Source: a virus. From it: DNA of 64,000 nt. The position numbers and the translations under genes are program-made. Below are positions 37,552 to 63,994 of the stretch, in pieces. The notes under the pieces were generated by a model that was not told the origin of the DNA, did not search any database, and saw nothing but the letters and a program-made list of their open reading frames with translations. The stretch lies in the IMG/VR virus record IMGVR_UViG_3300047558_000137, positions 246,859-310,858 of that record; one strand, given 5' to 3'. Position 1 is the first letter of the stretch. Every line of letters starts with the position of its first letter.

Positions 37552-39469
<1,918 letters not shown>

Positions 39470-43506: not shown

Positions 43507-43519
43507 AATATATTCTACT

Positions 43520-50508: not shown

Positions 50509-51135
50509 TTATGTAAGGGTTGTTAATACATATGGCCAACATAAAGGGCCGGGTTTCGTAACAGGACCGGTCAATCGTTGATGTGCTGTATACCAACTTT
50601 TATGTATTAATTTTGCATCATCAAAGTTTATATTGAAGTTACCATAATGGCATATCTGAGAATAAAGTAATTCATCTAGATCTTCAGTGTATAAATCTGC
50701 TGTATCAAGTAAAAGTCCAGAGCAATTGCCTACATATAATTCTGCTTGTTGACGTTCATACCGCACTGTATTGAAGTATAAGTTTCGATCTACATGTGTG
50801 AATTTTTTATATAAGTCTAATGTCACCAGTGGATCTGTTGGATATAAGAAATAGTTAACATTGCTATCAAATTGCCCTGGTCTATTTTCCCACCCCGGGT
50901 CAAAATTGGTATGAGCAAATTTAATCTGTTCATTTAAGACCTGTCTATACTTAAACTCATAACTAAACCAATTTTTACAGTTACGCTCTGCAGGATAAAC
51001 ATTTGACAGTATATAGTCAACTTTATCCGCAACAGGGCCACGATCAAAAAGAAGAAAACCGGGGTCGAGTAGTAGCAACCACCTTAAATGATTACCACAC
51101 CCGCCCCGGCAACTATGCACAATAGCACGATGCAT
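50509..51135 (-). CDS. hypothetical protein
   Basis: 208-aa ORF, stop/start overlap with phosphoesterase. Confidence 0.45.
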   Translation of the reverse strand: MHRAIVHSCRGGCGNHLRWLLLLDPGFLLFDRGPVADKVDYILSNVYPAERNCKNWFSYEFKYRQVLNEQIKFAHTNFDPGWENRPGQFDSNVNYFLYPTDPLVTLDLYKKFTHVDRNLYFNTVRYERQQAELYVGNCSGLLLDTADLYTEDLDELLYSQICHYGNFNINFDDAKLIHKSWYTAHQRLTGPVTKPGPLCWPYVLTTLT

Positions 51136-51740
51136 TACATTGTAGGCCCATTGCCATTACGCATACCAACTGTACCACCTTCTGCTGTAATGCGCTTGAT
51201 GACATCTTCAAACAGGATGGGAGCGAAGTCCGGGGTCTGTTCTACACACACGCAGTGGTAGCGGACATCGTTCTCATTACTGTACAAGACTTCACCGGTT
51301 TTGACATTATATCCACGCATCTTCTTTACACGATTAGTATGCAAGTGTCCGTGAATGTTCGTGCCAAAGCGGCCCAACGAAGCTTCGTGTACCGGAATAT
51401 GACTAAGAATCATTCCGTTCATTACATGGTATGCACGTAGTTCACGAAAGTATTCACGATATTCTTCATCACGAAAGATATCATGGTTGCCACGGATCAA
51501 GACTTTATCACCGTTTAGGCGGGCAAGCGTTTTCAAAGCCCGTCTATTGATAACAACATCGCCTAGGTGATAGACTTTGTCGTTGGGCCTTACACGGTCA
51601 TTCCAGGCCTTGACCATGGCTTCATCCATTTCATCCGGATCTGTCCACGGACGTATTTTTGTAACACCGTCCGCTTCAGTAAAGCGACATACACCGGCAT
51701 GGCCAAAGTGCGTATCGCTAACTAAGAATACTGCTGGCAT
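51135..51740 (-). CDS. calcineurin-like metallophosphoesterase
   Basis: DTHFGH, GDVV, GNHD, ...GHLH motifs in canonical order. Confidence 0.8.
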   Translation of the reverse strand: MPAVFLVSDTHFGHAGVCRFTEADGVTKIRPWTDPDEMDEAMVKAWNDRVRPNDKVYHLGDVVINRRALKTLARLNGDKVLIRGNHDIFRDEEYREYFRELRAYHVMNGMILSHIPVHEASLGRFGTNIHGHLHTNRVKKMRGYNVKTGEVLYSNENDVRYHCVCVEQTPDFAPILFEDVIKRITAEGGTVGMRNGNGPTM

Positions 51741-51822: not shown

Positions 51823-51896
51823 TGGAGCGGGATAGCGGAATCGAACCGCTGACTTGAACTTGGAAGGATCTCGTTTTACCATTAAACTAATCCCGC
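51823..51896 (-). tRNA. tRNA, probably Gly(TCC); anticodon stem imperfect
   Basis: Cloverleaf with T-arm AGCGG-TTCGATT-CCGCT, acceptor GCGGGAT/ATCCCGC, encoded CCA; loop CTTCCAA but only 3/5 stem pairs. Confidence 0.6.
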
Positions 51897-51903
51897 ATAA
51901 ACT

Positions 51904-51978
51904 TGGTACCTTGTGACAGTTTCGAACTGCCGACCCTCTCGGTGTAAACGAGACGCTCTACCCCTGAGCTAACAAGGC
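51904..51978 (-). tRNA. tRNA-Val(TAC)
   Basis: GCCTTGT-TA-GCTCAGGGGTAGAGC-G-TCTCG-TTTACAC-CGAGA...TTCGAAA; CCA encoded. Confidence 0.8.
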
Positions 51979-52081
51979 AACTATTTTTTGTACTCTTGCA
52001 AGTACTGATTTCTTTTTGAAATCTTTTTATATCTACTTCCTTTGCCTTTACTACCAAAGTTTTCTGTTTGACTATGGCAAA

Positions 52082-52157
<76 letters not shown>

Positions 52158-52161
52158 CATA

Positions 52162-52238
52162 TTGGTTGCAGAGGCTGGATTCGAACCAGCGGCCTCCAGG
52201 TTATGAGCCTAGCGGGATGACCAACTTCCCTACCCTGC
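52162..52238 (-). tRNA. tRNA-Met(CAT), initiator-like (C1 opposite A72)
   Basis: CGCAGGG...CTAGG-CTCATAA-CCTGG...GCTGGTTCGAATCCAGC-CTCTGCA-A-CCA; unpaired 1:72 is the bacterial initiator hallmark. Confidence 0.75.
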
Positions 52239-52246
52239 GTCAATAT

Positions 52247-52882
52247 TTATACCAGCTGCTCTGCTACTAACAGAGAAACTGTATCAGCATCCAATTCGAT
52301 TTCGGTGCGAACATTAAGTTCCAACACCCGATCATTGATGCTTTGTTTTTCTTTTTTCAGGCTACGCATTTCTGCCTTGTAACCTTCAATTTGTTCTGCT
52401 GTCAACACGCCAGTGTCAACTGTGTCGCTGTACCCATACATACGGGTCTTTGAATCGCTGTCGCGAAGTTTCCGCAACTTGCCAGACAACACTTTTTCCG
52501 ATTCAACAACTTTGCCTTCGGTTAGGCTTTTTAGTTGGCCAATACGCTTATCAACGTAAGCGGCTTCTGTGAGCAAGTCTGCTACACCACTTGCGGCATT
52601 AGCACGACCAACTTGGGCACGAATTGCGTACAAGGCCTTTGTCAGCTTGTTACGGCGTGCATCGTTAGCAACAACGCCTTCACGAGCACAAGCCAACTCT
52701 TTAGCTGGATCCTGGAACTCGTTTAGTGAAAACGATGTAGTCACTTCAATGGTTTTTGTGTGTTCCTGGATTGTGTTTTGTAATGCGTTTGCTTTGCGAA
52801 GTGTAATCTTCATAATCGAGTCCCTTTCTGATTGAATTATAGCAGTGAGCGTATGGCAAGTCAATTGCCGGACAATGTGCAA
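52247..52882 (-). CDS. hypothetical coiled-coil protein (start possibly at internal MKITLRK)
   Basis: 211-aa ORF directly downstream of tRNA-Met. Confidence 0.45.
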   Translation of the reverse strand: MHIVRQLTCHTLTAIIQSERDSIMKITLRKANALQNTIQEHTKTIEVTTSFSLNEFQDPAKELACAREGVVANDARRNKLTKALYAIRAQVGRANAASGVADLLTEAAYVDKRIGQLKSLTEGKVVESEKVLSGKLRKLRDSDSKTRMYGYSDTVDTGVLTAEQIEGYKAEMRSLKKEKQSINDRVLELNVRTEIELDADTVSLLVAEQLV

Positions 52883-53108
52883 AATACATTAGCGGTTAGA
52901 CATTTTTAGGCGCCTAAATTACTAAAGCAAAATACAAGAGACAGAGGATACCAATATTCGTGAGTGTCAACAAACAAGGCAATTACGCCGGGGTCTCACA
53001 TCACTGGATCACGATTGTTAATGCAATATTTCCGTTCAAGGGAATATTACGGTGCAATCTCTCATCTCCATACACATCACCGTCCTGTTTTAATAAACAG
53101 GCAAAATC

Positions 53109-53291
53109 TTAACAATGTTCTTTAAACAACGCCTTGCGCTTTTCTTGGCCCAATGTGTTATCTAAAACATCTTTGCATCTATTCATCATACCAAAACATA
53201 AAATCAATAACTCATTCTGGTCATCGCACATCATAATCTGCTGTTCGATGGGTTGCATAAGTTCTTTTAATTTTTGATCAATAGGATGCAT
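53109..53291 (-). CDS. small hypothetical protein (track ORF 53109-53366 runs into tRNA-Cys; shortened to internal Met)
   Basis: MHPIDQKLKELMQPIEQQIMMCDDQNELLILCFGMMNRCKDVLDNTLGQEKRKALFKEHC. Confidence 0.3.
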   Translation of the reverse strand: MHPIDQKLKELMQPIEQQIMMCDDQNELLILCFGMMNRCKDVLDNTLGQEKRKALFKEHC

Positions 53292-53296
53292 AAACT

Positions 53297-53372
53297 TGGA
53301 GCACGGTGTAGGAGTTGAACCTACCTCATACCGGGTTTGCAATCCAGCGCATAACCGCTCTGCCAACCGTGC
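53297..53372 (-). tRNA. tRNA-Cys(GCA)
   Basis: GCACGGT...D-loop AGCGGTTA identical to E. coli tRNA-Cys, loop TTGCAAA, T-arm GTAGG-TTCAACT-CCTAC, CCA encoded. Confidence 0.75.
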
Positions 53373-53504
53373 ATAATTCTTTGTTTAGTGGGCTACCCCT
53401 CATGTTCTCTTACTCTTGGGTAACGTGACCAGATCGCATAGCACCGAAGAACAATCCGTACTATACTAGGCTCCCTCGCTAAAGGCATCACTAAACAAAA
53501 ACTT

Positions 53505-53596
53505 ATATGTAAACACACTACCACGGCGTTATACTGCTGTATCGCAAGCAATACTACCATGTCTACCCATTGTGCATGTAATGTGTTTGCATATAA
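53505..53596 (-). repeat. copy A of about 90-nt conserved hairpin element (arms ATGTAAACACACT / AATGTGTTTGCATAT)
   Basis: Second copy at 56129-56207 abuts the 3' end of tRNA-Lys; arms are inverted repeats of each other, inner region partly conserved (AATACTACC / AGTATTGCTACC). Confidence 0.55.
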
Positions 53597-53597
53597 G

Positions 53598-53670
53598 TGG
53601 AGGACTGAGATTACATCTCTCCCAATAGCACCTCGAGCATTATACTGCACCTTGCGAGCACAGCTTCTCT
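53598..53670 (-). pseudogene. degenerate tRNA-like remnant (3' end CTCAGTCCTCCA resembles tRNA-Lys 3' end) attached to repeat copy A
   Basis: No canonical T-loop; same junction with the hairpin element as the intact tRNA-Lys copy. Confidence 0.25.
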
Positions 53671-53928
53671 CGACATCCACGGTAACCCTTGCGGTATTAC
53701 TGTCTGCTATCAGCATCGCCGTTTTTAACGTCAGGCAGTAGACGTGTCGCTATCAGCTACTCTGTACCTTATTTCCCGTTGACCTTTAGAGCCATTCACA
53801 GTCGCTAAACTGTTACGAAACTTCTAGTACAAACCAATTTCACCTTGCGAGTTACGTTGGACTTGATTCACTTGCGTGTCAAGCATTAGATGCTTTTCAC
53901 TGATAACCGTGTCAGACTTTGCGTTTTT

Positions 53929-54000
53929 CGATGTTAGCTGGGATCGAACCAGCAGTCTATTTCTTAGAAGGAAATCGGCCTACCATTAGCCTATAACAAC
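53929..54000 (-). tRNA. tRNA-Arg(TCT), no encoded CCA, one acceptor mismatch
   Basis: GTTGTTA-TA-GGCTAATGGTAGGCC-G-ATTTC-CTTCTAA-GAAAT...GCTGGTTCGATCCCAGC-TAACATC. Confidence 0.6.
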
Positions 54001-54735
54001 CTACTATGATGAGCTGACACAGTTGATCCATACACTTTTGGTATACAGAATACAACTCACCACGTACCTTTCCTCTCGCGGAGTAATCAGTCGTTTTTTG
54101 CGATCAATGTCTACGCTAACACGTAACCACCAACCACTCAAACTGCACTACAACCCTTAGGAGCGACCCCTCGGATCATAACGCTACCCTTTCTCATACT
54201 AACTGACAAGTTGGTTTTGCTGTGAAGTCGGCACCACCCGTTACTTTCCACACACCCGAGTTCCCTTTGATGCGATCTCTGGCTCGACGATATGCGTTCT
54301 TCCCACAGCACTTGCTTCATTGTTACATCCACCGGTCTTATCAGTGAACGCTACCTCACGGTAGTGAGCAGGCTTGCTTAAATGAACTATTGCTAGCGGA
54401 GTTGCGTAGGCTTACCTCCTTTGGCTGTGTCACCACAGTTATTCTTTGTCTAGCCGGGCGAACCGACTCTACAGGACATTAAGCTGCCCTTAAATTCTTA
54501 TACAACTGCACACTCACAGGAATTGAACCTGTCTACCTGGCGACCATTTGTTCATCCAGGCTGCAATCCGCTACATCTGCGTGGCCTACGCATTTGTGTG
54601 CATGTGTATAAGAACTTCTTATACTTTAACTTTTTAAAGAACATTTTCGTCAGTTATTGCTAACTGTCTAAGTATCTATTGTTACATAAAAAACATTTAT
54701 TGTCAACTGTTTTTTAGATAAAAATAAAAATATTT

Positions 54736-54810
54736 TGGTCCGGCGTGCAGGAATCGAACCCACATTCGCGAGGTAGAAGCTCGCTGTATTATCCATTATA
54801 CTAACGCCAG
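54736..54810 (-). tRNA. tRNA-Arg(TCT), second copy; paralogous to tRNA-Arg(ACG) at 58222
   Basis: CTGGCGT-TA-GTATAATGGATAATAC-A-GCGAG-CTTCTAC-CTCGC...GTGGGTTCGATTCCTGC-ACGCCGG-A-CCA. Confidence 0.75.
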
Positions 54811-54830
54811 TTAGATATAAGTATTATACT

Positions 54831-55385
54831 ATGAGTCACCTTTATAGCCAAGAATTAAAAACATGGAACGAGCATCTTTTTCAAAGTGACTACGGCTGGG
54901 GCAACAATCAAACGTACCTCTTTCCACTTAATGCCGATACCATACTAAAAGATAACGACATTATAAAGCTAATTAAACCAAAATCAATATTAGATTATGG
55001 TTGCGGTAATGGTTTAGTATTACAAAATATTTGTCAAACTTTCCCTCATATACACGCTGTTGGCTATGACCCTTTTGTAGGAAAATACGCAGAATTTCCA
55101 CAAGGTGAGTTTGATCTAGTGTTGTCCTACCATGCAATTAACAACGTTGAGTATGACTACTGGGACGAGACCATCTCTAAGTTACAACAACTCTGCAAGT
55201 CTAATGCATTTTTTAAAGTAGTCCTAACTGGCCGATATCCAGAAAGAACCTTTAGCTGGTACAATGACGAATTTAGCAAATATTTTAAGATACGGCGTAG
55301 TTTCCATGACACTATTCCAACTACACGAAGCTCGGTGTTTGAAAACAAGACGGTGTTCTTTGGAACATTTTGGCTTACTAGATAG
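54831..55385 (+). CDS. class I SAM-dependent methyltransferase
   Basis: ILDYGCGNGLVLQNI motif I, acidic motif II GYDPF; only plus-strand gene inside the tRNA island. Confidence 0.65.
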   Translation: MSHLYSQELKTWNEHLFQSDYGWGNNQTYLFPLNADTILKDNDIIKLIKPKSILDYGCGNGLVLQNICQTFPHIHAVGYDPFVGKYAEFPQGEFDLVLSYHAINNVEYDYWDETISKLQQLCKSNAFFKVVLTGRYPERTFSWYNDEFSKYFKIRRSFHDTIPTTRSSVFENKTVFFGTFWLTR

Positions 55386-55468
55386 TGGTACCCCCGGTCA
55401 GATTCGAACTGACATATTATACTCCTCTGTTTGAGAGAGGCGACTTTACCAAATTTGTCCACAGGGGC
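55386..55468 (-). tRNA. tRNA-Leu(CAA), class II long variable arm
   Basis: GCCCCTG...CCTCT-CTCAAAC-AGAGG plus 12-nt variable arm, GTCAGTTCGAATCTGAC, CCA encoded. Confidence 0.75.
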
Positions 55469-55474
55469 ATTTAT

Positions 55475-55550
55475 TGGTGGCAAGGACTGGGGTCGAACCA
55501 GTGACACACGGATTTTCAATCCGCTGCTCTACCAACTGAGCTACATTGCC
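55475..55550 (-). tRNA. tRNA-Phe(GAA)
   Basis: GGCAATG-TA-GCTCAGTTGGTAGAGC-A-GCGGA-TTGAAAA-TCCGT...ACTGGTTCGACCCCAGT; CCA encoded. Confidence 0.8.
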
Positions 55551-55752
55551 ATATAGAAGCACTCTCAAATGCAGGCCTAGGAGGAGTCAAGCTCTGAAAC
55601 CGTTGCGTATGCATCCACTTGGGTCTCATCTCCCGCTTTGTCTTACGCCAAGAATACTTCTATATGAGCTCCACCGTTAACTGACGCTTGTCCTAGCTTT
55701 ATTTTGTGTCGGTTAATGCACGGTGGACACACATGCCGACAGATTTTTATGC

Positions 55753-55833
55753 GAACTCATTGTAGGCAGGACTCGAACCTGCAAGCGGCGACGGCTAGTC
55801 CCCGATGTCTACCAATTTCATCACTACGAGTTC
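55753..55833 (-). pseudogene. tRNA-like sequence with canonical T-arm (GCAGGTTCGAGTCCTGC) but non-canonical acceptor/anticodon geometry
   Basis: Could be a degenerate or interrupted tRNA; not foldable by hand into a standard cloverleaf. Confidence 0.3.
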
Positions 55834-56128
55834 CTGGAGTTAATTACTCCCCAGTATGGATGTTACCTGCAGATAACATTAACCATATAAAAGACAACTA
55901 CGAATATTGTGTTGCTAGCCCGGCGTTGGTCGCGAAAACCCTTTCCTTGCTACTTGGCACAATAGACTTCCAAACTACTTAGGCGCCGGCCGACGTTTTA
56001 TTTCGTAAGTTAATTGTCTTTTATATGGCGGTACATGAGTTAACCTAAAGCTAGTCTAATATCGTGGCCACAATATTTCGTCTATGTCTTAGGATATACA
56101 CGTTGGTACCTTGCGTACCTCACGCACC

Positions 56129-56207
56129 ATATGTAAACACACTGACTCTCCAGTATTGCTACCTTCACCGAGTTTGACGTCTTAGGTCGTGCAATGTGTT
56201 TGCATAT
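56129..56207 (-). repeat. copy B of the about 90-nt hairpin element, immediately 3' of tRNA-Lys(TTT)
   Basis: ATGTAAACACACT ... AATGTGTTTGCATAT, same arms as copy A. Confidence 0.55.
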
Positions 56208-56282
56208 GGTAGGACTGCCCGGACTCGAACCGGGAATTGACGGATTAAAAGTCCGCTGTGATAACCATTTCACTACAATCCC
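56207..56282 (-). tRNA. tRNA-Lys(TTT)
   Basis: GGGATTG-TA-GTGAAATGGTTATCAC-A-GCGGA-CTTTTAA-TCCGT...CCCGGTTCGAGTCCGGG; CCA encoded. Confidence 0.8.
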
Positions 56283-56286
56283 ATAT

Positions 56287-56361
56287 TGGTCCCTAACGAA
56301 GGATTCGAACCTTCAACTCGAGGATTAAGAGTCCTGTACGTTACCATTACGCCAGTTAGGG
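56287..56361 (-). tRNA. tRNA-Lys(CTT) (tentative anticodon)
   Basis: CCCTAAC-TG-GCGTAATGGTAACGT-A-CAGGA-CTCTTAA-TCCTC...GAAGGTTCGAATCCTTC-GTTAGGG-A-CCA. Confidence 0.65.
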
Positions 56362-56454
56362 TTAGTGTATTACGTTTTGTTTAACGTGCTAACCCAGACC
56401 AATACGGGATCTGAGTCAACACTAACGTTTACCACGTTTCATGTTGTTCTCCTG

Positions 56455-57078
56455 TTACATGTTTTTAAATTGAATTGTTCGCCAAGACTCAGGGTCTGGC
56501 TGCTCGTTTTCATCGTATGTCCAACCTAGTGCTTTCATCATCTTGTGCTTAACACGCAAGTTAGGAATACGAGTCTTTTCAGTGTCCTGAAAGCCCATCA
56601 TAATCCCAACTTCCGCTACTGCACCACTACGACACAAGCCAGCCATACAGTGTACTACAACACCCATTTTATTGTCAAGTGCATGTTGCAAGAGTCGCAC
56701 AATTTCTTGTGCTTGCTCATCGCTAATTTTACACTCTTCTGGGAAGTTATCCCGATCCTCAACATCCAGAAACTCAAACCTATGTGTTTCTTTAAATTTG
56801 TGTACTGGTGTGGGCCACCAGCTGGTAGCTGTATCCATGATTTGGATAAGCATACTATTCTCCCCGCAGTCATGATGAAAGCGAGCGGGAATATCGGCAG
56901 CAGCCACATTTTCGATAAAAGGCATCATACATCCTTCATTACTTGATAGAGAACAAACATTATAACACATACCAGAATTAGTACACTCATTGATGTTCTC
57001 CTTTTTGTTGGTGCCCCAGGTCGGACTCGAACCGACACGCCTCACAGCAATGGTTTCTAAGACCATCGTGGCTACCAT
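56455..57078 (-). CDS. dual-specificity (Cys-based) protein/RNA phosphatase
   Basis: Active-site VVHCMAGLCRSGAV (HCx5R P-loop) with upstream Asp; 207 aa. Confidence 0.75.
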   Translation of the reverse strand: MVATMVLETIAVRRVGSSPTWGTNKKENINECTNSGMCYNVCSLSSNEGCMMPFIENVAAADIPARFHHDCGENSMLIQIMDTATSWWPTPVHKFKETHRFEFLDVEDRDNFPEECKISDEQAQEIVRLLQHALDNKMGVVVHCMAGLCRSGAVAEVGIMMGFQDTEKTRIPNLRVKHKMMKALGWTYDENEQPDPESWRTIQFKNM

Positions 57079-57092
57079 TACACCACCGGGGC
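57009..57092 (-). tRNA. tRNA-Leu(TAG), class II
   Basis: GCCCCGG...ATGGT-CTTAGAA-ACCAT plus long variable arm, GTCGGTTCGAGTCCGAC, CCA encoded. Confidence 0.75.
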
Positions 57093-57106
57093 AGATAAAT
57101 ACTTAC

Positions 57107-57661
57107 ATGAAATTCTCTGAAATTATACAAGAAGCCCGTAACCCAGAATGGGAATACGAAGACTTTGAAAACAAAGTGATCCTACGTTTAGAAGGGTACG
57201 ATAGTCAATTTGTGACTAAACTTGCTAAATCTTTCCAAGACGTTGCTGAAGCAAAAGAAAAACTAGCTGCTCTTGAAGAAATTCATAAGCAACAGATACG
57301 TGATCTACACGAATTGTTTGATGCTGCTGATGCGCTTAAAACTCGAGAAATTGAAACAAAGAGTCTTGTTGTACAAATTAGTAAAGACCCAGCTCCTACT
57401 AAAACTCCAAAGTATAAAGAAATCTTAACTCAAATCATGACACACATGAATCCTGAGTTATTAGCAATGACTAAAAGTTTAATTGAAACTATTGTAACTG
57501 TTGTACAAAAGCCCGCGGGCGTAAAAGTTAAACCACTCGATGAGAGTACAATGAATGCCCTACTTGCATTTGCACATCAAGTAAAAGCCAAAGTACTTAA
57601 CTGGGCTAATAGTTACGATCAGAAGTTGTTAATGTTAAAAAACGCGATAGCGCGAGCTTAA
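57107..57661 (+). CDS. hypothetical coiled-coil protein (track ORF 56990-57661 trimmed to Met after the tRNA)
   Basis: MKFSEIIQEARNPEWEYEDFENKVILRLEGYD... Confidence 0.4.
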   Translation: MKFSEIIQEARNPEWEYEDFENKVILRLEGYDSQFVTKLAKSFQDVAEAKEKLAALEEIHKQQIRDLHELFDAADALKTREIETKSLVVQISKDPAPTKTPKYKEILTQIMTHMNPELLAMTKSLIETIVTVVQKPAGVKVKPLDESTMNALLAFAHQVKAKVLNWANSYDQKLLMLKNAIARA

Positions 57662-58129
57662 ATTACTTTTGTCTTTAACCATGCGGTCAAATTGGCCGCT
57701 GCGTCCATCCATATAAAACCCACTAGGATCTAAAATACGTCCACGTATTTCTACCCAACTGTGTGGTATCCAACGAAACTCATCTTCTAAGTTGTTGTTC
57801 TTTATATAGGCAACACGATCCGACTTTTTACGTGGATCTAGCTGTTGCTCACGCATGGCTAATACGTCTTTCTTTTCAAGTGCATCATATGATGTATCTG
57901 CTACATCAACATAGATCCACCCGCCGGATTTGCGTCCGTTGTGTACACGCCCAATTGGAACTATTTCTGCATTACCGTATCCTTGATTACTTAGAAAGTC
58001 TTCAAAGTCTTGGCTTGCCCCAAAGCAGTTATCTTGTACAAAATAATACTGCATCTGCTCAGGACTTGCCTGACGCCAGAAGTCTACTAGCAATGGGTCA
58101 AAAGATTGTGTAAATTCAAAAAGGCGCAT
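57635..58129 (-). CDS. hypothetical protein
   Basis: 164-aa ORF. Confidence 0.45.
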   Translation of the reverse strand: MRLFEFTQSFDPLLVDFWRQASPEQMQYYFVQDNCFGASQDFEDFLSNQGYGNAEIVPIGRVHNGRKSGGWIYVDVADTSYDALEKKDVLAMREQQLDPRKKSDRVAYIKNNNLEDEFRWIPHSWVEIRGRILDPSGFYMDGRSGQFDRMVKDKSNLSSRYRVF

Positions 58130-58139
58130 AGTATATTTA

Positions 58140-58214
58140 TGGGTTGACGTATGAGAATCGAACTCATGATAGCGGAATCACAACCCGCGGTTTTGCCATT
58201 AAACTAACGCCAAC
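58140..58214 (-). tRNA. tRNA-His(GTG) with genomically encoded G-1
   Basis: G-TTGGCGT...GCGGG-TTGTGAT-TCCGC...ATGAGTTCGATTCTCAT-ACGTCAA-C-CCA; G(-1) opposite C73. Confidence 0.8.
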
Positions 58215-58221
58215 ATAAAAC

Positions 58222-58296
58222 TGGAGCCGCTGTATGGAATCGAACCACAATTCCCACGTTCGTAGCGTAGTGTATTATCCATTATACTACAGCGAC
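58222..58296 (-). tRNA. tRNA-Arg(ACG)
   Basis: GTCGCTG-TA-GTATAATGGATAATAC-A-CTACG-CTACGAA-CGTGG...TGTGGTTCGATTCCATA; CCA encoded. Confidence 0.8.
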
Positions 58297-58302
58297 ATTA
58301 TT

Positions 58303-58378
58303 TGGTGCTCCTAGATGGAGTCGAACCATCGACTTCTCCTTACCATGGAGATGTTTTACCGTTTCAAACTATGGGAGC
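58303..58378 (-). tRNA. tRNA-Thr(GGT)
   Basis: GCTCCCA-TA-GTTTGAAACGGTAAAAC-A-TCTCC-ATGGTAA-GGAGA...GATGGTTCGACTCCATC; CCA encoded. Confidence 0.75.
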
Positions 58379-58479
58379 ATGATGCTCTGTGGGCTGTCCA
58401 CTCAAGTCCGAGCAAGACATACGTTAGTATGTTATATTTCGTCTAACGTACATTCCGGTTACGCCGGTTCGTTGAAAAC

Positions 58480-58556
58480 TGGTCGGCCCTAGAGGATTCG
58501 AACCTCTAACCAACGATTTCGAAGACCGCTACTCTATCCAGTTGAGCCAAGGGCCG
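58480..58556 (-). tRNA. tRNA-Arg(TCG) (tentative)
   Basis: CGGCCCT-TG-GCTCAACTGGATAGAGT-A-GCGGT-CTTCGAA-ATCGT...AGAGGTTCGAATCCTCT-AGGGCCG-A-CCA. Confidence 0.65.
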
Positions 58557-59706
58557 AGAATGTTACATCCAATGTGTGCTTCTTCATAATAGCCTGAAAG
58601 TCTTCAAACTTATCAGCTTTTGGCGCACAGTATCCGCACAAACACGATGATTTCTTACATTGTATAACTGGCTTAATTTCATTAGAAAGCAAATTTAATT
58701 GATCATCTAATATAGCCTGATAGTTTGACAAATTACCAATGGGTTTTGTGGTGCCATTGAAGTTCATACGACAGTCTTTGTTGTAATATACATTACCGTT
58801 AACTTGTTTGATATACAAAAAATACCAATTAACACTACAGTACCAATCAAAGAATCCTGCTTCGGGCATAAATGCCACAGGATGTTTTAAATCTTGATTG
58901 CCACATAACTTGCGGCCACCACAACAACTACGACCAACATTGCCCATCCCAACTGTTTCAGACTCAACTGCATCCATTACATCGCCAATAATGTATCTAC
59001 TGCGAGCAACAGTATTAGATTGATAATACTCTTTAAAGAATACAAATTGTTCTTTAGTATATTGCCATCCTGGTCCCGGGTAATCGTTAGCTTTGATTAC
59101 ATACTTAATATTTTGTTGTTTACAAAACTCTACTGCCGATTGACTAATATCCCATTTATCAGGATCATTATGCATAACAAAAACAATCTTTTGTCTACGA
59201 TCAATTGATTTATTGTACAAAATATTATCAAATATCTGCCGACGCTGTTTAGGTAATGCTGTACTATGAAAACTAATTGTAAATTCATCAATTAAATTTG
59301 CGACTTGTTTCCATAACACTGGGCCTGCTACTGCATTGGTTGTGCATGTCACTGTCAGTGGCCAACGATCTGCATACTTCTTGTGCCTAACACGAACTTG
59401 TTCTAATATTTCAACAATGTTGGGATGAAAAATGCTTTCGCCGCCATAGACATTTAAGATAACCATACGTTGCCACGCAGGCTTTAGTTGCATGTATCGA
59501 TCAGCATACTCATACATAAAGTCGATTGTACGCAAACAATCTTCTAACGGTGGGTGCTGAGTGCTGTTATCATGTCCACCTGTTTCAATATCATTTAAAC
59601 AATAGTCGCAATCTAAATTGCACTTCATTGTTAATTCCCAATCTAATAGAAAGGTGGGTCTATTAGACGGGTCAATGGCCGGTTCAATTGAAATGATTTT
59701 TTTCAT
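58534..59706 (-). CDS. radical SAM domain protein (with additional C-terminal Cys clusters)
   Basis: CNLDCDYC (CxxxCxxC) near N-terminus; further CCGGRKLC and CKKSSCLCGYC clusters at C-terminus suggest auxiliary Fe-S (SPASM-like) sites. Confidence 0.7.
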   Translation of the reverse strand: MKKIISIEPAIDPSNRPTFLLDWELTMKCNLDCDYCLNDIETGGHDNSTQHPPLEDCLRTIDFMYEYADRYMQLKPAWQRMVILNVYGGESIFHPNIVEILEQVRVRHKKYADRWPLTVTCTTNAVAGPVLWKQVANLIDEFTISFHSTALPKQRRQIFDNILYNKSIDRRQKIVFVMHNDPDKWDISQSAVEFCKQQNIKYVIKANDYPGPGWQYTKEQFVFFKEYYQSNTVARSRYIIGDVMDAVESETVGMGNVGRSCCGGRKLCGNQDLKHPVAFMPEAGFFDWYCSVNWYFLYIKQVNGNVYYNKDCRMNFNGTTKPIGNLSNYQAILDDQLNLLSNEIKPVIQCKKSSCLCGYCAPKADKFEDFQAIMKKHTLDVTFSALGSTG

Positions 59707-59711
59707 ATAAA

Positions 59712-59789
59712 TGGTCGGAGTTGAGGGATTCGAACCCCCGACCCTCTGGTCCCAAACCAGATGCGCTAGCCAGACTGCGCTAAACTCCG
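59712..59789 (-). tRNA. tRNA-Pro(TGG)
   Basis: CGGAGTT-TA-GCGCAGTCTGGCTAGCGC-A-TCTGG-TTTGGGA-CCAGA...GGGGGTTCGAATCCCTC; CCA encoded. Confidence 0.8.
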
Positions 59790-59793
59790 AAAC

Positions 59794-59884
59794 TGGTGGA
59801 AAGCGTGGGAATCGAACCCACTGACCTGCTCATCACAAGTCTACACCTTAGCAGGGTGCTGCATTACCGGCCTGCCCGCTTTCC
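59794..59884 (-). tRNA. tRNA-Ser(GCT), class II with 6-bp variable stem
   Basis: GGAAAGC...GCACC-CTGCTAA-GGTGT, variable arm GACTTG-TGATGAG-CAGGTC, GTGGGTTCGATTCCCAC; CCA encoded. Confidence 0.75.
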
Positions 59885-59900
59885 TAATTTTGGTGGAGAG

Positions 59901-60287
59901 TTAACGTTTTAACCCTCTGGCTGTTCTTCCTTTGCCTTTATTTTTAGCAACAAACGTATCTGTTTGACTATGACAATTAGGACATAACAGTCTTAAATTC
60001 TTTGGCTTATCATTTCCTGCATTACCATCTATGTGATCTAATTGTAACACAAGAGGTCTATTTTTGTGAGTCCCAGTGTTGCCACACTCAATGCATTTAT
60101 ACCCATGAAGATGTGTTAAACATCTTATAAGAGTTCTTCTAGTAGAAATTTCTCCCTTTAAAAACTTTGGTAATGTTTCTGTTTTAAACTGAAATTGTTG
60201 TTGGCAAGTATTATTGCAAAACTTATTTGTGTGATTTCGTTTTACTATATTCTCTTTGCCGCAGCATAAACAATTGAAATTATTCAT
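59901..60287 (-). CDS. HNH endonuclease (homing-endonuclease-like), paralog 1
   Basis: N-terminal Cys-rich zinc finger (CLCCGKE...CNNTCQ), C-terminal LQLDHIDGNAGNDKPKNLRLLCPNCHSQT HNH motif. Confidence 0.75.
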   Translation of the reverse strand: MNNFNCLCCGKENIVKRNHTNKFCNNTCQQQFQFKTETLPKFLKGEISTRRTLIRCLTHLHGYKCIECGNTGTHKNRPLVLQLDHIDGNAGNDKPKNLRLLCPNCHSQTDTFVAKNKGKGRTARGLKR

Positions 60288-60304
60288 AATGTAGTCCTCT
60301 ACAT

Positions 60305-60312
60305 TATTTATA
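60305..60312 (-). promoter_or_regulatory. TATAAATA late-promoter-like box upstream of HNH gene
   Basis: Minus strand reads TATAAATA 18 nt upstream of the ATG at 60287; spacing short, so tentative. Confidence 0.25.
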
Positions 60313-60336
60313 CAGAACTCTACATTTTTAAGTAGT

Positions 60337-60411
60337 TGGTGGAGGATAGCGGGGTCGAACCGCTGACTGAAGCTTGCAAAGCTACCGTGTTCCCAACTAT
60401 ACCAATCCCCC
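60337..60411 (-). tRNA. tRNA-Ala(TGC) with G3:U70
   Basis: GGGGGAT...GTAGC-TTTGCAA-GCTTC...AGCGGTTCGACCCCGCT-ATCCTCC-A-CCA; G3-T70 wobble is the Ala identity element. Confidence 0.75.
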
Positions 60412-60464
60412 GAATTCGTGACAGACTACTTATCTCATTATACTCCGCCTGTCAGGGAGAGTTT

Positions 60465-60540
60465 TGGTGCCCCTTGTCCGACTCGAACAGACCACCTACT
60501 GATTACAAATCAGTTGCTCTACCAGATGAGCTAAAGGGGC
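60465..60540 (-). tRNA. tRNA-Thr(TGT)
   Basis: GCCCCTT-TA-GCTCATCTGGTAGAGC-A-ACTGA-TTTGTAA-TCAGT...; CCA encoded. Confidence 0.8.
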
Positions 60541-60626
60541 GAAATACTTCCAACTGTTAGCTTACGCTCTCTCCGTTGGCGATTGAGCAGCCGACATTCT
60601 TAAAGTCTTCTCGGAACTGACTTGTT

Positions 60627-60702
60627 TGGCTCCCCAGCGTGGGATCGAACCACGGACACCTTGATTAACAGTCAAGTGCAACTACCGCTGTGCTACTGGG
60701 GA
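60627..60702 (-). tRNA. tRNA-Asn(GTT)
   Basis: TCCCCAG...CTTGA-CTGTTAA-TCAAG...CGTGGTTCGATCCCACG-CTGGGGA-G-CCA. Confidence 0.8.
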
Positions 60703-60747
60703 ATAATACAATTATATATGACAAATTATTGTTGTCAATATAAATTT

Positions 60748-60822
60748 TGGTGTCCAGGGAGAATTTCGAAATCTCGACCTATGCGTTATCAACACATTGC
60801 TCTTCCTCTGAGCTACCCGGAC
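60748..60822 (-). tRNA. tRNA-Ile(GAT)
   Basis: GTCCGGG-TA-GCTCAGAGGAAGAGC-A-ATGTG-TTGATAA-CGCAT...; CCA encoded. Confidence 0.8.
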
Positions 60823-60827
60823 ATATT

Positions 60828-61214
60828 CTAATACCACGGAAGTCCTCTGCTGCCTCTTCCGTTACCTTTATTTTTTGCTTTATGTGTTGGAGTTTTAGCA
60901 TGACAATTAGGACACAATAGCCGCAAATTTTTGGGCCGGTTATCTCCTGCATTGCCATCAATGTGATCTAACTCAAGTGGTATAGGCTCACCTAGCCACT
61001 CAGTGTTATCACAACACATGCATTTCCATCCATGGATATCAACCATATGGGCTTTCATCCATCCACGGTTTACCATCTTACCATCTAAGAAATTTTGTCG
61101 CCTATCTTTCTTTTGCCCTTCTTTAGAACAAGATACACTACAATATGTCCCAGTGGAACTTCCTATTTTAAACTTAAATTCGGTATTACAATTTTTACAA
61201 GTTGCTATTGCCAT
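60828..61214 (-). CDS. HNH endonuclease, paralog 2
   Basis: ATCKNCNTEFKF...CSVSC zinc finger plus LELDHIDGNAGDNRPKNLRLLCPNCHAKT; about 45 percent identical to paralog 1 in the HNH core. Confidence 0.75.
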   Translation of the reverse strand: MAIATCKNCNTEFKFKIGSSTGTYCSVSCSKEGQKKDRRQNFLDGKMVNRGWMKAHMVDIHGWKCMCCDNTEWLGEPIPLELDHIDGNAGDNRPKNLRLLCPNCHAKTPTHKAKNKGNGRGSRGLPWY

Positions 61215-61423
61215 GGTACGATCTCCGTCTACTTGTATTTATGCTCGTACCGCATTTTTAATTGCCAATAAATACTGTATGGAAAAGATTATCAACGAAA
61301 TGCGACAACTCTACGAATATGCCAAAGGCGAATATCGCCGAGGTCCCACGCACGTTTGTACAAATGAATATACTAATACATTTCCAAAAAAACTACCGCC
61401 TGCAATTGATCTAGACAAAACAC

Positions 61424-61663
61424 TTGTTAAGTCTGAGTTTATTACAGATGGATTACCACCGCAATACCATGGCAAACAAACGCACACTAGAGTTGATCGA
61501 AACATATATAGACCAACTCGCTAAACAGCGAACGTTTAACACACGCAGTGAATACCTAGCGTGGCGTAGTGGTGTCCTTGCAGGTTTAATTGCAACGATT
61601 GCAGATCAAGATTCCCTAATACGATCTGCACTAATATCAATAGTACGACGATCTATTAAGTAA
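61424..61663 (+). CDS. small hypothetical protein(s) on plus strand (alternative overlapping frame 61282-61524 also open)
   Basis: Two mutually overlapping plus-strand ORFs between HNH gene and tRNA-Gln; which one is real cannot be decided from sequence alone. Confidence 0.25.
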   Translation: MLSLSLLQMDYHRNTMANKRTLELIETYIDQLAKQRTFNTRSEYLAWRSGVLAGLIATIADQDSLIRSALISIVRRSIK

Positions 61664-61737
61664 TGGCACGGGAACTAGGGATCGAACCTAGGACGACAGA
61701 GTCAAAGTCTGTTGTGTTACCTCTACACCATTCCCGA
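61664..61737 (-). tRNA. tRNA-Gln(TTG)
   Basis: TCGGGAA-TG-GTGTAGAGGTAACAC-A-ACAGA-CTTTGAC-TCTGT...CTAGGTTCGATCCCTAG-TTCCCGT-G-CCA; weak 1:72 pair as in bacterial tRNA-Gln. Confidence 0.7.
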
Positions 61738-61906
61738 ACAAATTTGGCTGAGCGTATGGAGTTGTACCCCAGGCATTAATCGGCTTTTATAGCCCCCACT
61801 CAAGTAGGACCACCGTACCTCTGTTCTTTCTGCAGAAACTCTCGAGCAGTGTACACTACTGCCCTCCACTCCTAGACTAGTGTGTACATGTCTACGAATA
61901 GTACCT

Positions 61907-61982
61907 TGGCGCCCCGTAGGGGTTTCGATCCCCTTGCCTCGACAGTGACAGTGTCGCGCTCTCCCAATTGAGCTAACGGAGC
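61907..61982 (-). tRNA. tRNA-Asp(GTC)
   Basis: GCTCCGT-TA-GCTCAATTGGGAGAGC-G-CGACA-CTGTCAC-TGTCG...AGGGGATCGAAACCCCT; CCA encoded. Confidence 0.8.
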
Positions 61983-62623
61983 AATTTTAATTCTTTGCAA
62001 ATATAATCATAGATAACTCTATGACCTTTTCTATTTGGATGATAACCATCGGGAAAGAAATATTCTTTGTTATCACCTAACGATAACTGATGGTCTTTCA
62101 TTACTATGATACGATCTAATTCATTTAGATCAAATTGCCGATCAATTTTATTCATCCAGTCACTGACCCAAATTGGAGGATGCTGGAACTCGGGCCATAT
62201 TAATCTAGTAACACTAGGTATAATGGGCACAAGATTTTTAAAATCTTTAATTAAGTCTAGATTAATTTCACTACACCCGCCAATACAGTGTATAACAACA
62301 CCCATGCTGTTTAATCTAGTATAGGCATCAATTAAACATTCACGACTTTTTTCTAGTAACTTATCTATAGTATTGTATTGTTCAAACTTATGATAAGGTC
62401 TTAAATCGCGAAGTGGGTCTGATTGAAACCAAAAGATGTAATCAAATTTGTATGTAGGAATCAGCGATGAAGATATTTTATTGCTAAATCCCACACGAGA
62501 TACATTTTTTACATCTGCACCTGCTTCTGCAAAATACTGGGCAAGTCCTTGGTGTTCAACTGCACCATTAGGTGCGCCTAGCTCACCAACTCCCCAACTG
62601 TCTCCTGCTATACAAATTTTCAT
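61973..62623 (-). CDS. SGNH/GDSL-family hydrolase
   Basis: N-terminal MKICIAGDSWGVGELG block I; C-terminal DGYHPNRKGH matches block V DxxH. Confidence 0.6.
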   Translation of the reverse strand: MKICIAGDSWGVGELGAPNGAVEHQGLAQYFAEAGADVKNVSRVGFSNKISSSLIPTYKFDYIFWFQSDPLRDLRPYHKFEQYNTIDKLLEKSRECLIDAYTRLNSMGVVIHCIGGCSEINLDLIKDFKNLVPIIPSVTRLIWPEFQHPPIWVSDWMNKIDRQFDLNELDRIIVMKDHQLSLGDNKEYFFPDGYHPNRKGHRVIYDYICKELKLLR

Positions 62624-62634
62624 ACTATGTTAAA

Positions 62635-62719
62635 TGGTGGATGCGGCTGGAGTCGAACCAGCAGTGCCAGGGGCGGCGGATTTACAGTCCACTGGGGTTA
62701 CCAATTTTCCTACACATCC
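62635..62719 (-). tRNA. tRNA-Tyr(GTA), class II long variable arm
   Basis: GGATGTG...GTGGA-CTGTAAA-TCCGC plus 13-nt variable region, GCTGGTTCGACTCCAGC-CGCATCC-A-CCA. Confidence 0.7.
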
Positions 62720-62724
62720 AAATT

Positions 62725-63111
62725 TTATCTAACTGCTTTTGCTCTAGCTGTGACCATATCATCGATGTTGCCTTTAATAACAACATTGGTGTAAGTATCG
62801 ACTAGACCGCTAGCATGATCAGTAACCCTATTGTCAGGTTCGTGATACGTTCTAATACGTTCCTCGCCTGCTTGATAGCGTTCTGTATCTTTATGGAAAT
62901 GCGCTTGTACCCTACTAAGGCATGTTATATACGCATTTCGTTTATTGTCTTCACGACTCCTACTGCTAGTACCATTGGCTTTTATTCCAGTGGGTACGTG
63001 AATGCAACGACAACAGTTTTGATGTTTGTTACGGTGCTGACCTCCTTTACCGGTGCCAGAATACCATTCATATATAAATTGTTCTTCCGTAACTTTCATA
63101 ACTGCTTCCAT
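62725..63111 (-). CDS. peptidyl-tRNA hydrolase domain protein (RF-1 family GGQ; ArfB/PrfH-like ribosome rescue or release factor fragment)
   Basis: [26 protein letters not shown] = GGQ loop as in [42 protein letters not shown] = release-factor IRTYNFPQGRVTDHRI block; 128 aa, no codon-recognition domains. Confidence 0.8.
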   Translation of the reverse strand: [128 protein letters not shown]

Positions 63112-63116
63112 AAAAT

Positions 63117-63192
63117 GGTACTCGGTACGGGAATCGAACCCGTCTTACTAACGTGAAAGGCTAGTGTCCTAAACCGATAGACGAACCGAGCA
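63117..63192 (-). tRNA. tRNA-Glu(TTC)
   Basis: GCTCGGT-TC-GTCTATCGGTTTAGGAC-A-CTAGC-CTTTCAC-GTTAG...ACGGGTTCGATTCCCGT-ACCGAGT-A-CCA. Confidence 0.75.
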
Positions 63193-63994
63193 TGTTTTCT
63201 AAATCAAGTCTTTGATAAGGTCTTGTTTTAAACAGTTCCTTATTGTACTCGATAATTCTTTTATTGTCAATCCACCATTGACGCCATTGATCTATATTGG
63301 TGTTTAACAATCTTTTAACTTCATTACTGTATGCGGCCCAACGTTGGTCATTGTCAGTTATATCATCATAACTGTAATCAATGAACTCCGGGAAAGCAAA
63401 CCCATAATATGTTTTTAATCTATTAATAAACTTTGCAGTACTAAAAGGCAAAATAAAATGTCCCATAATCAATGGAGAAAAAGTCTTCTCGGTCACCGAT
63501 ATGGTATTGCCATACTCAATTGATTCTCCGTATATAGAAACAAATGTATTCCTATAGTATTCTCTATGTGGTGGTGCGTATACAATTGGTCTGTGACGAC
63601 TTATACCACGCTCTAATTCTGCAACATCTCTGCACATAGGTCTTTCTGACTGCGGAAATAGTGCTCTTGGAGGGTTGCTGTCAACGCTTCCTATATAGCC
63701 ACGATCATTAAACGATTGCAAAAGATCAACTAACATAGTCCTGTATTTTCTAGGACGATCTGTATTACGATATGTTGTGTTAGTTGAAACAAAAATTTTG
63801 TTTTTCTGCATTGCATCAGGATGATCAACTGATTCATAATCACTTGGATGACTATAGTGCAATACATGTGAACTATCACTATATTTGTAATGTTCATAAT
63901 ATGATTTGGTCATATTATATAGATAATCCAAGTAGATGATCTTAGGATGTTCTACATTTGGATCATAGGCACTAGTAAATGTTAAATCATGCAC
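63161..63994 (-). CDS. hypothetical protein (C-terminus overlaps tRNA-Glu by about 30 nt; start near window edge)
   Basis: 277-aa ORF, Tyr/Asn-rich. Confidence 0.4.
   Translation of the reverse strand: MHDLTFTSAYDPNVEHPKIIYLDYLYNMTKSYYEHYKYSDSSHVLHYSHPSDYESVDHPDAMQKNKIFVSTNTTYRNTDRPRKYRTMLVDLLQSFNDRGYIGSVDSNPPRALFPQSERPMCRDVAELERGISRHRPIVYAPPHREYYRNTFVSIYGESIEYGNTISVTEKTFSPLIMGHFILPFSTAKFINRLKTYYGFAFPEFIDYSYDDITDNDQRWAAYSNEVKRLLNTNIDQWRQWWIDNKRIIEYNKELFKTRPYQRLDLENMLGSSIGLGH

Follow-up and report, generated by a model that had tools for sequence, protein, structure and literature searches.

What does a phage gain from a release-factor-like protein that carries no codon-recognition domain, and how does its gene come to lie between two tRNA genes? 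The locus that raises this question is found in a 64,000-nucleotide stretch of viral DNA (IMG/VR record IMGVR_UViG_3300047558_000137, positions 246,859 to 310,858), hereafter the window, in which we confirmed a minus-strand open reading frame (ORF) at 62725..63111 (128 aa). In line with the initial annotation, which was made from the sequence alone, ARAGORN places a tRNA-Tyr and a tRNA-Glu gene at 5 nt on either side of it. The same annotation described the product as a stand-alone GGQ protein with the architecture of ArfB/YaeJ-type ribosome rescue factors. We find that the protein, here called mini-RF, is an N-terminally truncated RF1-type release factor, composed of the catalytic domain 3, a shortened linker, and domain 4, with domains 1 and 2 missing.

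The family assignment had been made dependent on a match to the RF-1 domain (Pfam ID PF00472) and on the position of the catalytic glutamine. The Pfam match is significant: residues 5-99 score 52.1 bits (E 7.7e-14), where the cutoff is 35. BLASTP against E. coli RF1 (PrfA, annotated K-12 record) aligns RF1 residues 227-341 (E 4e-14), placing Q25 on Q235 of the RF1 GGQ. RF1 is the closest known protein, RF2 being slightly more distant, and the homology spans the whole of mini-RF at 30% identity; hhalign of our 51-member family profile against E. coli RF1 covers residues 215-343 of 360 in 118 columns (E 1.3e-27). In a hidden Markov model (HMM) built from seven full-length release factors, mini-RF covers only positions 215-347 of 358, and in the NCBIfam prfA model positions 217-345 of 361, where its 62 bits are far under the equivalog cutoffs of 400-423. 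The NCBIfam prfB model yields 47.8 bits against a cutoff of 370, and the best sequence match in the PDB is RF1 (PDB ID 1zbt, residues 236-356), aligned with an 11-residue deletion. Pfam, NCBIfam, and the full-length release factor HMM all detect no PCRF or codon-recognition domain in mini-RF, which agrees with the initial description of a stand-alone phage GGQ protein of the RF-1 family that lies inside a tRNA cluster and has no such domains.

The AlphaFold2 (AF2) model predicted from the family alignment has a mean predicted local distance difference test (pLDDT) score of 86.4 and consists of the strands (E) and helices (H) E12-17, H24-27, E33-38, E44-47, H53-72, E87-90, E95-98, H107-112, and H117-127. 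The top 47 Foldseek matches in the PDB are chains of RF1, RF2, or mitochondrial RF1-type factors (mtRF1/mtRF1a), aligned over about 130 columns, with a PrfH chain only in 48th place and the ArfB/ICT1 chains absent from the top 50. Because the sequence, profile, and structure comparisons all agree, we consider mini-RF to be the C-terminal third of an RF1-type factor.

The catalytic GGQ domain (release factor domain 3) comprises residues 5-72 (62896..63099, minus strand), as supported by PF00472 and the AF2 model, aligns to RF1 215-286, and ends in the 20-residue helix alpha7. Its GGQ motif, read from the sequence as GGA GGT CAG, occupies residues 23-25 (63037..63045, minus strand), and both the GGQ loop and the RSxxxN start of the helix are shared with RF1. 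The linker that follows, residues 73-86 (62854..62895, minus strand), is the counterpart of the C-terminal alpha7 and the switch loop of RF1/RF2, the role of the switch loop having been described for RF2 (PMC5378476). With 14 residues, it is about 11 residues shorter than in RF1, poorly conserved, and modelled without secondary structure at a pLDDT of about 67. Residues 87-128 (62728..62853, minus strand) form a module similar to release factor domain 4, aligned to RF1 306-343 and RF2 ~324-363, in which a beta-hairpin with the RTY and RVTDH motifs, also shared with RF1, is followed by two helices (pLDDT >90). The IRTY...RVTDH block pointed out in the initial annotation is present, with IRTY at residues 86-89 and RVTDH at residues 95-99 in the 128-aa numbering, and belongs to domain 4 of RF1/RF2. 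In class I release factors, domain 1 contacts the L11 stalk, and domain 2 bears the PxT stop-codon reader in RF1. As it lacks domains 1 and 2, and with them the PxT reader, mini-RF cannot be a stop-codon-specific terminator.

The length of 128 aa is that of the mechanical ORF, which extends to 63111. Conservation points to a start at codon 5, an ATG at 63097-63099, since ATG-AAA-RTY is found in nearly all close relatives, and the in-frame ATG upstream of it is absent from many of them. The modal homologue length is 124 aa, with exactly this length in 100 of the top 120 homologues. Since the relatives are mostly 124 aa long and many lack the upstream ATG, the true product most likely has 124 aa from codon 5, giving 62725..63099 (minus strand, 124 aa plus the TAA stop) as the likeliest coding sequence (CDS). 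A weak Shine-Dalgarno-like GGAAG (63105..63109, minus strand) is located 5 nt 5' of the conserved ATG; at this position, some lineages of relatives have AGGAG (often, 5-8 nt upstream) and others have nothing.

The comparison with ArfB decides a claim of the initial annotation. ArfB and ICT1 are stand-alone GGQ proteins of about 130-140 aa without codon recognition and share with mini-RF what is presumably a codon-independent hydrolase activity. Under this explanation, mini-RF would work as ArfB/YaeJ/ICT1 do, its GGQ domain being joined to a basic C-terminal helix with which non-stop ribosomes are sensed through their vacant mRNA entry channel, and the similar size (124 vs 140 aa), the stand-alone GGQ domain, the missing codon-recognition domain, and an isoelectric point of 9.1 are compatible with it. 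However, the homology to ArfB is restricted to the GGQ core, with 26 residues around the GGQ motif in BLASTP and 69 columns in hhalign, and the ~23-residue insertion in the GGQ domain of ArfB is missing from the mini-RF family profile. The long linker and the basic C-terminal helix of ArfB are missing as well; the C-terminus of mini-RF is instead release factor domain 4, folding in the AF2 model as the domain-4 hairpin and helices, and its last 40 residues contain 5 K/R and 6 D/E, whereas those of ArfB contain 16 K/R. The NCBIfam ArfB model (NF006718, cutoff 100 bits) gives no match at E<=1, and ArfB/ICT1 chains do not appear among the 50 best PDB folds. Membership of the ArfB family is contradicted by these results, the architecture claimed by the initial annotation has to be dropped, and we regard an ArfB-type mode of action as highly improbable. 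The ribosomal state that mini-RF would recognise differs from the empty mRNA channel that ArfB-type factors sense with their basic tail. A tblastn search with E. coli ArfB for true ArfB proteins in phages returned host contamination only.

Mini-RF belongs to a large family. The homologue search yielded at least 688 clusters at 90% identity, mainly from uncultured phages, and an HMMER scan of 1.84 billion cluster representatives gave 2082 matches at E<=1e-3. The top 120 homologues are 74-100% identical to the query, and all 120 contain GGQ. We sorted the best 150 of the HMMER representatives at 50% identity by architecture. Short proteins that combine GGQ with the RTY...D domain-4 motif account for 75 of them (median 136 aa), short proteins that have GGQ and no RTY...D motif for 35, and a further 15 are mid-length proteins (160-195 aa) that include the last strands of domain 2 with a PPT/PxT-like loop. 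Across 51 diverse members, down to 28% identity, G23, G24, Q25, N56, A60, R87, Y89, and D98 are invariant (51/51) and V96 is nearly so, while the linker columns are variable. Mini-RF is under strong purifying selection: measured against 58 relatives with at least 70% identity, the median for nonsynonymous differences (pN) is 0.157, compared with 0.81 for synonymous differences (pS), at which synonymous sites are saturated. A chance ORF is excluded by the hundreds of homologues together with these pN and pS values.

The same data bear on the explanation that mini-RF is a decaying RF1 fragment, one half of a split release factor, or a release factor tied to stop-codon reassignment, to which we give hardly any credence. 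It could draw on the Joint Genome Institute (JGI) annotation of family members as "peptide chain release factor 1" and on the RF1 and RF2 genes reported from huge phages (PMC7162821). A remnant is opposed by the strong purifying selection and by the hundreds of homologues of constant length. A split gene was rejected within the window, where the full-length release factor HMM, run against 359 ORFs of at least 40 aa, matched mini-RF alone. Stop-codon recoding was rejected, too: ORFs in the window end in TAA (46), TAG (11), and TGA (8), the frames close shortly beyond each of these stops, code 11 yields a coding fraction of 79%, and the 27 tRNAs include no suppressor.

A protein identical to mini-RF is found on a 374-kb contig, and BFVD contains a single uncultured-phage protein with the full architecture (A0A6J5T9T2), its cultured-phage entries matching only in the 65-75-residue GGQ domain. 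When 50,697 phage records were searched by tblastn with mini-RF, every match fell below 40% identity, and most were to complete RF1/RF2 in records contaminated by host DNA; the plasmid collection gave mostly full-length RF1 genes of chromids. One match on a Bosea megaplasmid was dropped; it is unannotated, lies opposite another CDS, and is part of a defence island. Among species-representative genomes, mini-RFs are found in several metagenome-assembled genomes, and alphaproteobacterial isolates contain truncated RF1-like proteins of 155-173 aa that correspond to RF1 model positions 180-334. Such mid-length RF1-like proteins from Alphaproteobacteria and metagenomes (155-195 aa) share the GGQ context and the RTY...D domain 4 with mini-RF but keep the last domain-2 strands with a PPT/PxT-like loop (QRVPPTERRGRVHTS), which mini-RF lacks. 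At three isolate loci (L092, L095, and L096), the proteins retain a domain-2 fragment with such a PxT-like loop, as in RVPPTERRGRVHTS. These bacterial matches look PrfH-like by eye but score far below the PrfH cutoff, and we classify them as truncated RF1-like. One of them, in Gemmobacter caeni DSM 21823 (L095, NZ_QBKP01000002.1, 2878-3351), is located among 8 tRNAs in 6.3 kb, an independent case of a truncated RF1-like gene inside a tRNA array.

A third short type (108-120 aa; L094, L097, L102, L103, and L104) shares the GGQ context and has a different, helical C-terminus without RTY/DH; it includes gp125 of Tunturiibacter phage Tunturi_3 (L104 3983-4321, 112 aa). Proteins consisting of the GGQ domain only (64-136 aa) occur in the cultured Acinetobacter phage 133, phiPsa347, and Mycobacterium phage Phabba.

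The position of the gene between tRNAs is the second striking property of mini-RF. In the window, tRNA-Glu(ttc) is located directly upstream (63116..63191, minus strand; Rfam tRNA 54.5 bits) and tRNA-Tyr(gta) directly downstream (62635..62719, minus strand; Rfam tRNA 47.4 bits), both being called by ARAGORN and confirmed in the junction analysis. tRNA-Glu lies 5 nt from the ORF, its encoded CCA end being 16 nt 5' of the conserved ATG, and 5 nt separate the TAA stop of mini-RF from the start of tRNA-Tyr. For the synteny analysis, tRNAs and junctions at 80 IMG/VR loci were processed by script, and tRNAs were counted for 47 non-identical close relatives. In 38 of these 47, tRNAs are present within 5 kb, and a co-oriented tRNA lies at most 35 nt away on at least one side in 27 and on both sides in 20. 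All 379 tRNAs at these loci are on the strand of the gene. The flanking species vary, with Met/Arg(tct), Leu(taa)/Pro(ggg), Ser/Ser, and Val/Leu besides the Glu/Tyr pair of the window; mini-RF has therefore kept its place within arrays that were themselves reshuffled.

The junctions are tight. The encoded CCA of the upstream tRNA typically ends 10-18 nt before the start codon (relatives L004-L060). On the other side, 0-8 nt separate the TAA from the downstream tRNA, the distance being 0 nt in L006, L008, L024, L026, and L042. In the group flanked by Met/Arg(tct), no Shine-Dalgarno sequence is present. Mini-RF is probably co-transcribed with the tRNAs of the array and could be called "tRNA-punctuated", in that its mRNA would be cut out by RNase P and by the processing of tRNA 3' ends. 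In the window, the excised mRNA would carry a leader of 16 nt and extend 5 nt beyond the stop codon; in relatives, RNase P would cut the mRNA directly at its stop codon or shortly behind it, so that it would almost be a non-stop mRNA.

A tRNA-Glu/mini-RF/tRNA-Tyr co-transcript could start at a sigma-70-like promoter TTGACA-17-TACAAT (63242..63270, minus strand), found in a consensus scan with 11/12 matching positions about 50 nt upstream of tRNA-Glu. The site is a candidate only, because the regional total of such sites is no higher than in shuffled sequences. From 60.5 to 64 kb, the minus strand yielded no terminator-like site, which fits such a co-transcript. The promoter-like site at 63242-63270 falls inside an ORF of 277 aa (63161-63994, minus strand), which has no Pfam or PHROG match and overlaps tRNA-Glu by 31 nt at its 3' end. 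Downstream, a 216-aa ORF between tRNA-Tyr and tRNA-Asp (61973-62623, minus strand) has no family match and is conserved as a neighbour of mini-RF in L001; inspected by eye, its GDS(W)G start and DGYHPN end are reminiscent of SGNH/GDSL hydrolases. At one related locus (L062), which encodes a mini-RF of 55% identity, Rfam reports a match of only 82 nt to the transfer-messenger RNA (tmRNA) family about 350 nt downstream of that gene (5701-5782, plus strand; 61.6 bits). The tmRNA was not confirmed by ARAGORN, and we consider the match probably a tRNA-like element.

GGQ domains of the RF-1 superfamily hydrolyse peptidyl-tRNA in the ribosomal peptidyl-transferase centre. From its domain composition and gene position, we lean, on balance, towards the prediction that mini-RF is a ribosome-dependent, codon-independent peptidyl-tRNA hydrolase, placed at the 30S A site by domain 4 and the linker, which serves ribosome rescue during infection and is co-expressed with tRNAs. 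With these two parts docked there, the GGQ loop would reach into the peptidyl-transferase centre, where it would hydrolyse the peptidyl-tRNA and so free nascent chains from ribosomes stalled during infection. Stalling could be caused by degraded host mRNA, by host nucleases directed against tRNA, mRNA, or rRNA, or by codon starvation. The selection of ribosomes by a module that does not read codons has precedents in truncated release factor relatives, namely, the ArfB tail and the rRNA- and S12-binding domain of PrfH (PMC9304027). Stop-codon-independent hydrolysis on stalled ribosomes or a defence against host toxins, both proposed in the initial annotation, remain plausible hypotheses.

Several observations weigh against a rescue factor that works alone and in concert with tRNAs. 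Domain 4 normally packs on domain 2, and binding of the ribosome by a stand-alone domain 4 would be a hypothetical arrangement. Alpha7 and the linker, together about 11 residues shorter than in RF1, would still have to bridge the decoding site and the peptidyl-transferase centre, and an AF2 predicted template modelling (pTM) score of only 0.52 leaves it uncertain how the two domains are oriented towards each other. A factor without any specificity for a codon or a ribosomal state would harmfully terminate translation early, so that some mechanism of selectivity must exist. About 20% of the close relatives and most of the distant ones (40-55% identity) have no nearby tRNAs, which makes the tRNA link strong in this clade, not obligatory. 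Finally, no conserved partner emerged from the clustering of same-strand neighbours, in which the commonest family is present at no more than 14 of 81 loci.

The last point bears on the explanation that selectivity comes from a partner. A phage or host adaptor might bind domain 4 and the linker, as ArfA, BrfA, or ArfT do with RF2 or RF1, or might supply a domain-2-like sheet, and would in this way select the ribosomes. Domains 2 and 4 of RF1/RF2 form a superdomain, and ArfA binds the RF2 switch loop and the domain-2 sheet (PMC5378476); furthermore, the domain-4 motifs of mini-RF are invariant despite the lost codon reader, and the mid-length relatives retain a piece of domain 2. On the other hand, the most frequent protein neighbour is found at only 14 of 81 loci, and the 64-kb window, out of a genome of about 370 kb, encodes no protein similar to release factor domains 1-2, although a partner might be encoded in another part of the genome or by the host. 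We consider such a partner unlikely.

Mini-RF might also manipulate translation, occupying the A site in competition with host RF1/RF2 or shutting off the host by releasing peptides from its messages too early. Without codon recognition, any A site would in principle be accessible. Yet the invariant GGQ argues for selected catalysis and not for mere competition, the co-oriented placement in the array and the co-expression suggest a role in support of translation, and no sign of selectivity for host messages is seen; we judge this very unlikely. The codon-independent rescue factor remains the reading we favour.

The array hosting mini-RF (51823..63191, minus strand) comprises 27 co-oriented tRNAs called by ARAGORN, a GOLLD RNA, two HNH endonuclease genes, and genes for a metallophosphoesterase, a Cys-phosphatase-like protein, and a radical-SAM protein. 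The HNH genes (59901-60287 and 60828-61214, minus strand, 128 aa each) lie between tRNAs of the array, as reported for other tRNA arrays. The other three proteins are a calcineurin-like metallophosphoesterase (51135-51740, minus strand), a dual-specificity/Cys-phosphatase-like protein (56455-57078, minus strand), and the radical-SAM protein (58534-59706, minus strand); on the opposite strand, the region also encodes a methyltransferase (54831-55385, plus strand). The commonest neighbours over all loci, each at no more than 14 of 81, are a metallophosphoesterase, a Cys-phosphatase-like protein, a P-loop kinase, and a radical-SAM protein, and the array in the window has the first, second, and fourth of these. 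The metallophosphoesterase, the Cys-phosphatase-like protein, and the P-loop kinase may constitute a gene set for RNA repair or RNA modification.

A further explanation is a PrfH-like specificity for ribosomes with a damaged decoding centre, for example with 16S rRNA cut by ribotoxins of the colicin E3 type, or for ribosomes jammed by cleaved tRNA. PrfH is, like mini-RF, an N-terminally truncated release factor without stop-codon motifs, and its decoding-site module binds rRNA and S12 and not mRNA, being a precedent for the recognition of a ribosomal state (PMC9304027). The metallophosphoesterase and Cys-phosphatase-like genes of the array, with the P-loop kinase at some related loci, resemble an RNA-repair set, and the rescue of ribosomes jammed by cleaved tRNA has been invoked in the comparative genomics of jumbo phages (PMC7824862). 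The GGQ context HRNKHQN resembles that of the bacterial truncated RF1-like proteins, which are themselves far under the PrfH cutoff. However, PrfH is a protein of about 200 aa with a domain-2-like recognition domain that is absent from mini-RF, mini-RF reaches 49.7 bits in the PrfH model TIGR03072, whose cutoff is 166.65, with only residues 5-81 aligned (model positions 101-177), and the PDB chains of PrfH, best placed 48th in the fold search, align to the GGQ domain alone. RtcB was detected neither in the 30 ORFs scanned with Pfam in the window, which represents 64 kb of the ~370-kb genome, nor among the recurrent neighbours in 81 loci. Mini-RF is therefore not a PrfH, and we regard a PrfH-like specificity as improbable.

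The GOLLD RNA of the array is full length (53602-54063, minus strand; Rfam RF02032, 191.7 bits against a cutoff of 150, E 1.8e-52, model positions 1-416 of 416), and tRNA-Arg(tct) is embedded in it at 53929-54000. Among 14 related loci checked, one (L053) has a GOLLD RNA (4448-4914, plus strand, 215.6 bits), which ends 87 nt upstream of the mini-RF homologue at 5001-5351. GOLLD, an RNA of phages and prophages that is often located close to tRNA islands, forms a 14-mer nanocage of unknown function and has been reported to pull down ribosomes (PMC12286853). In mycobacteria, it sits in a cluster of 32 tRNAs alongside HNH endonucleases (PMC6582537), and one type of mycobacterial tRNA array was reported to have an RF-1-domain gene as its core (PMC5966550).

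The window resembles these mycobacterial arrays and the tRNA-rich actinophages (PHROG 3122 / 20323) in that short GGQ proteins occur on mobile elements or phages with large tRNA sets (PMC5966550, PMC6582537, PMC9583779, PMC8092301), and HNH genes and GOLLD, both present in the window, are also reported from mycobacterial tRNA arrays. Compared by description, the window contains what characterises the G1 arrays of Morgado and Vicente (2018), an RF-1-domain CDS and HNH genes in a dense tRNA array, here with two HNH genes and 27 co-oriented tRNAs. The proteins differ, however: the PHROG families match the GGQ half of mini-RF only (phrog_3122, residues 2-63, E 1.8e-7), and the GGQ proteins of tRNA-rich phages appear to have other C-termini, as in the 112-aa gp125 of Tunturi_3. 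Searching the phage and plasmid collections by tblastn at E<=1e-3 to 1e-5 revealed no mycobacterial homologue. The tRNAs, GOLLD, HNH genes, and an RF-1-domain protein, components that were reported from actinobacterial arrays in separate papers, are combined in the aquatic jumbo phage of the window.

A wider proposal, which we find rather doubtful, is that mini-RF represents a new class of codon-independent release or rescue factor, whose A-site anchor would consist of domain 4 and a short linker only and whose choice of substrate would be unlike that of ArfB, ArfA-RF2, and PrfH. Together with the tRNA array, GOLLD, and the HNH genes, it could form a recurrent mobile "translation-maintenance island", its mRNA being excised by tRNA processing, that keeps ribosomes running under host attack on tRNA, mRNA, or rRNA.

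Annotations, though nothing beyond them, had already recorded that phages encode short GGQ proteins and that RF-1-domain genes occur in tRNA arrays or tRNA-rich phages. PHROGs includes families titled "RF-1 domain peptide chain release factor", RF-1 release factors are annotated in Cluster C mycobacteriophages and in an M. abscessus prophage with 21 tRNAs and a tmRNA (PMC9583779, PMC8092301), and huge phages are said to encode RF1 and RF2 (PMC7162821). That extra rescue factors accompany extra tRNAs has been suggested for the mycobacterial tRNA arrays with RF-1-domain genes (PMC5966550). The domain 3+4 form is absent from the release factor survey of Burroughs and Aravind and from their survey of jumbo phages (PMC7824862). 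In the literature that we searched, we found no functional study of mini-RF and no description of the domain 3+4 architecture, its abundance in uncultured jumbo phages, or the tRNA-punctuated packing.

If active, mini-RF would be a fourth structural solution to stop-codon-independent peptide release in bacteria, after ArfB, ArfA/BrfA with RF2, and PrfH, and the smallest version derived from RF1. Its abundance and repeated linkage to arrays provide a testable handle on the question of why large phages carry tRNA arrays, which may supply the clearance of stalled ribosomes besides decoding capacity. The tight packing of tRNA, gene, and tRNA would be an example of tRNA-punctuated mRNA production in a bacterial virus, and an array shared with mini-RF may help to set GOLLD in a translational context.

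The window is clearly of phage origin, encoding tail fibres of the collagen/C1q and Mtd_N type, UvsW-like and DnaB-like helicases, and a phage-type GroEL. According to the helicases (~50% similarity), the nearest cultured phages are jumbo myoviruses of the Atu_ph07, Phosso, PA5oct, and RaK2 type, and megablast of the region 61.5-64 kb against the 50,697 phage records revealed no cultured relative that is close in DNA sequence. The GroEL chaperonin (37552-39171, minus strand) matches phrog_5725 with E 1.6e-181, and one tail fibre (18800-23338, minus strand) is a protein of 1512 aa that combines collagen repeats with an Mtd_N domain and, at its C-terminus, a C1q domain. A sugar-modification cluster (40689-45708, minus strand) encodes a GT9-like glycosyltransferase, a C-methyltransferase, a UDP-galactopyranose mutase, and an NDP-sugar dehydratase/epimerase, and a DctP-type solute-binding protein is found at 49029-49985.

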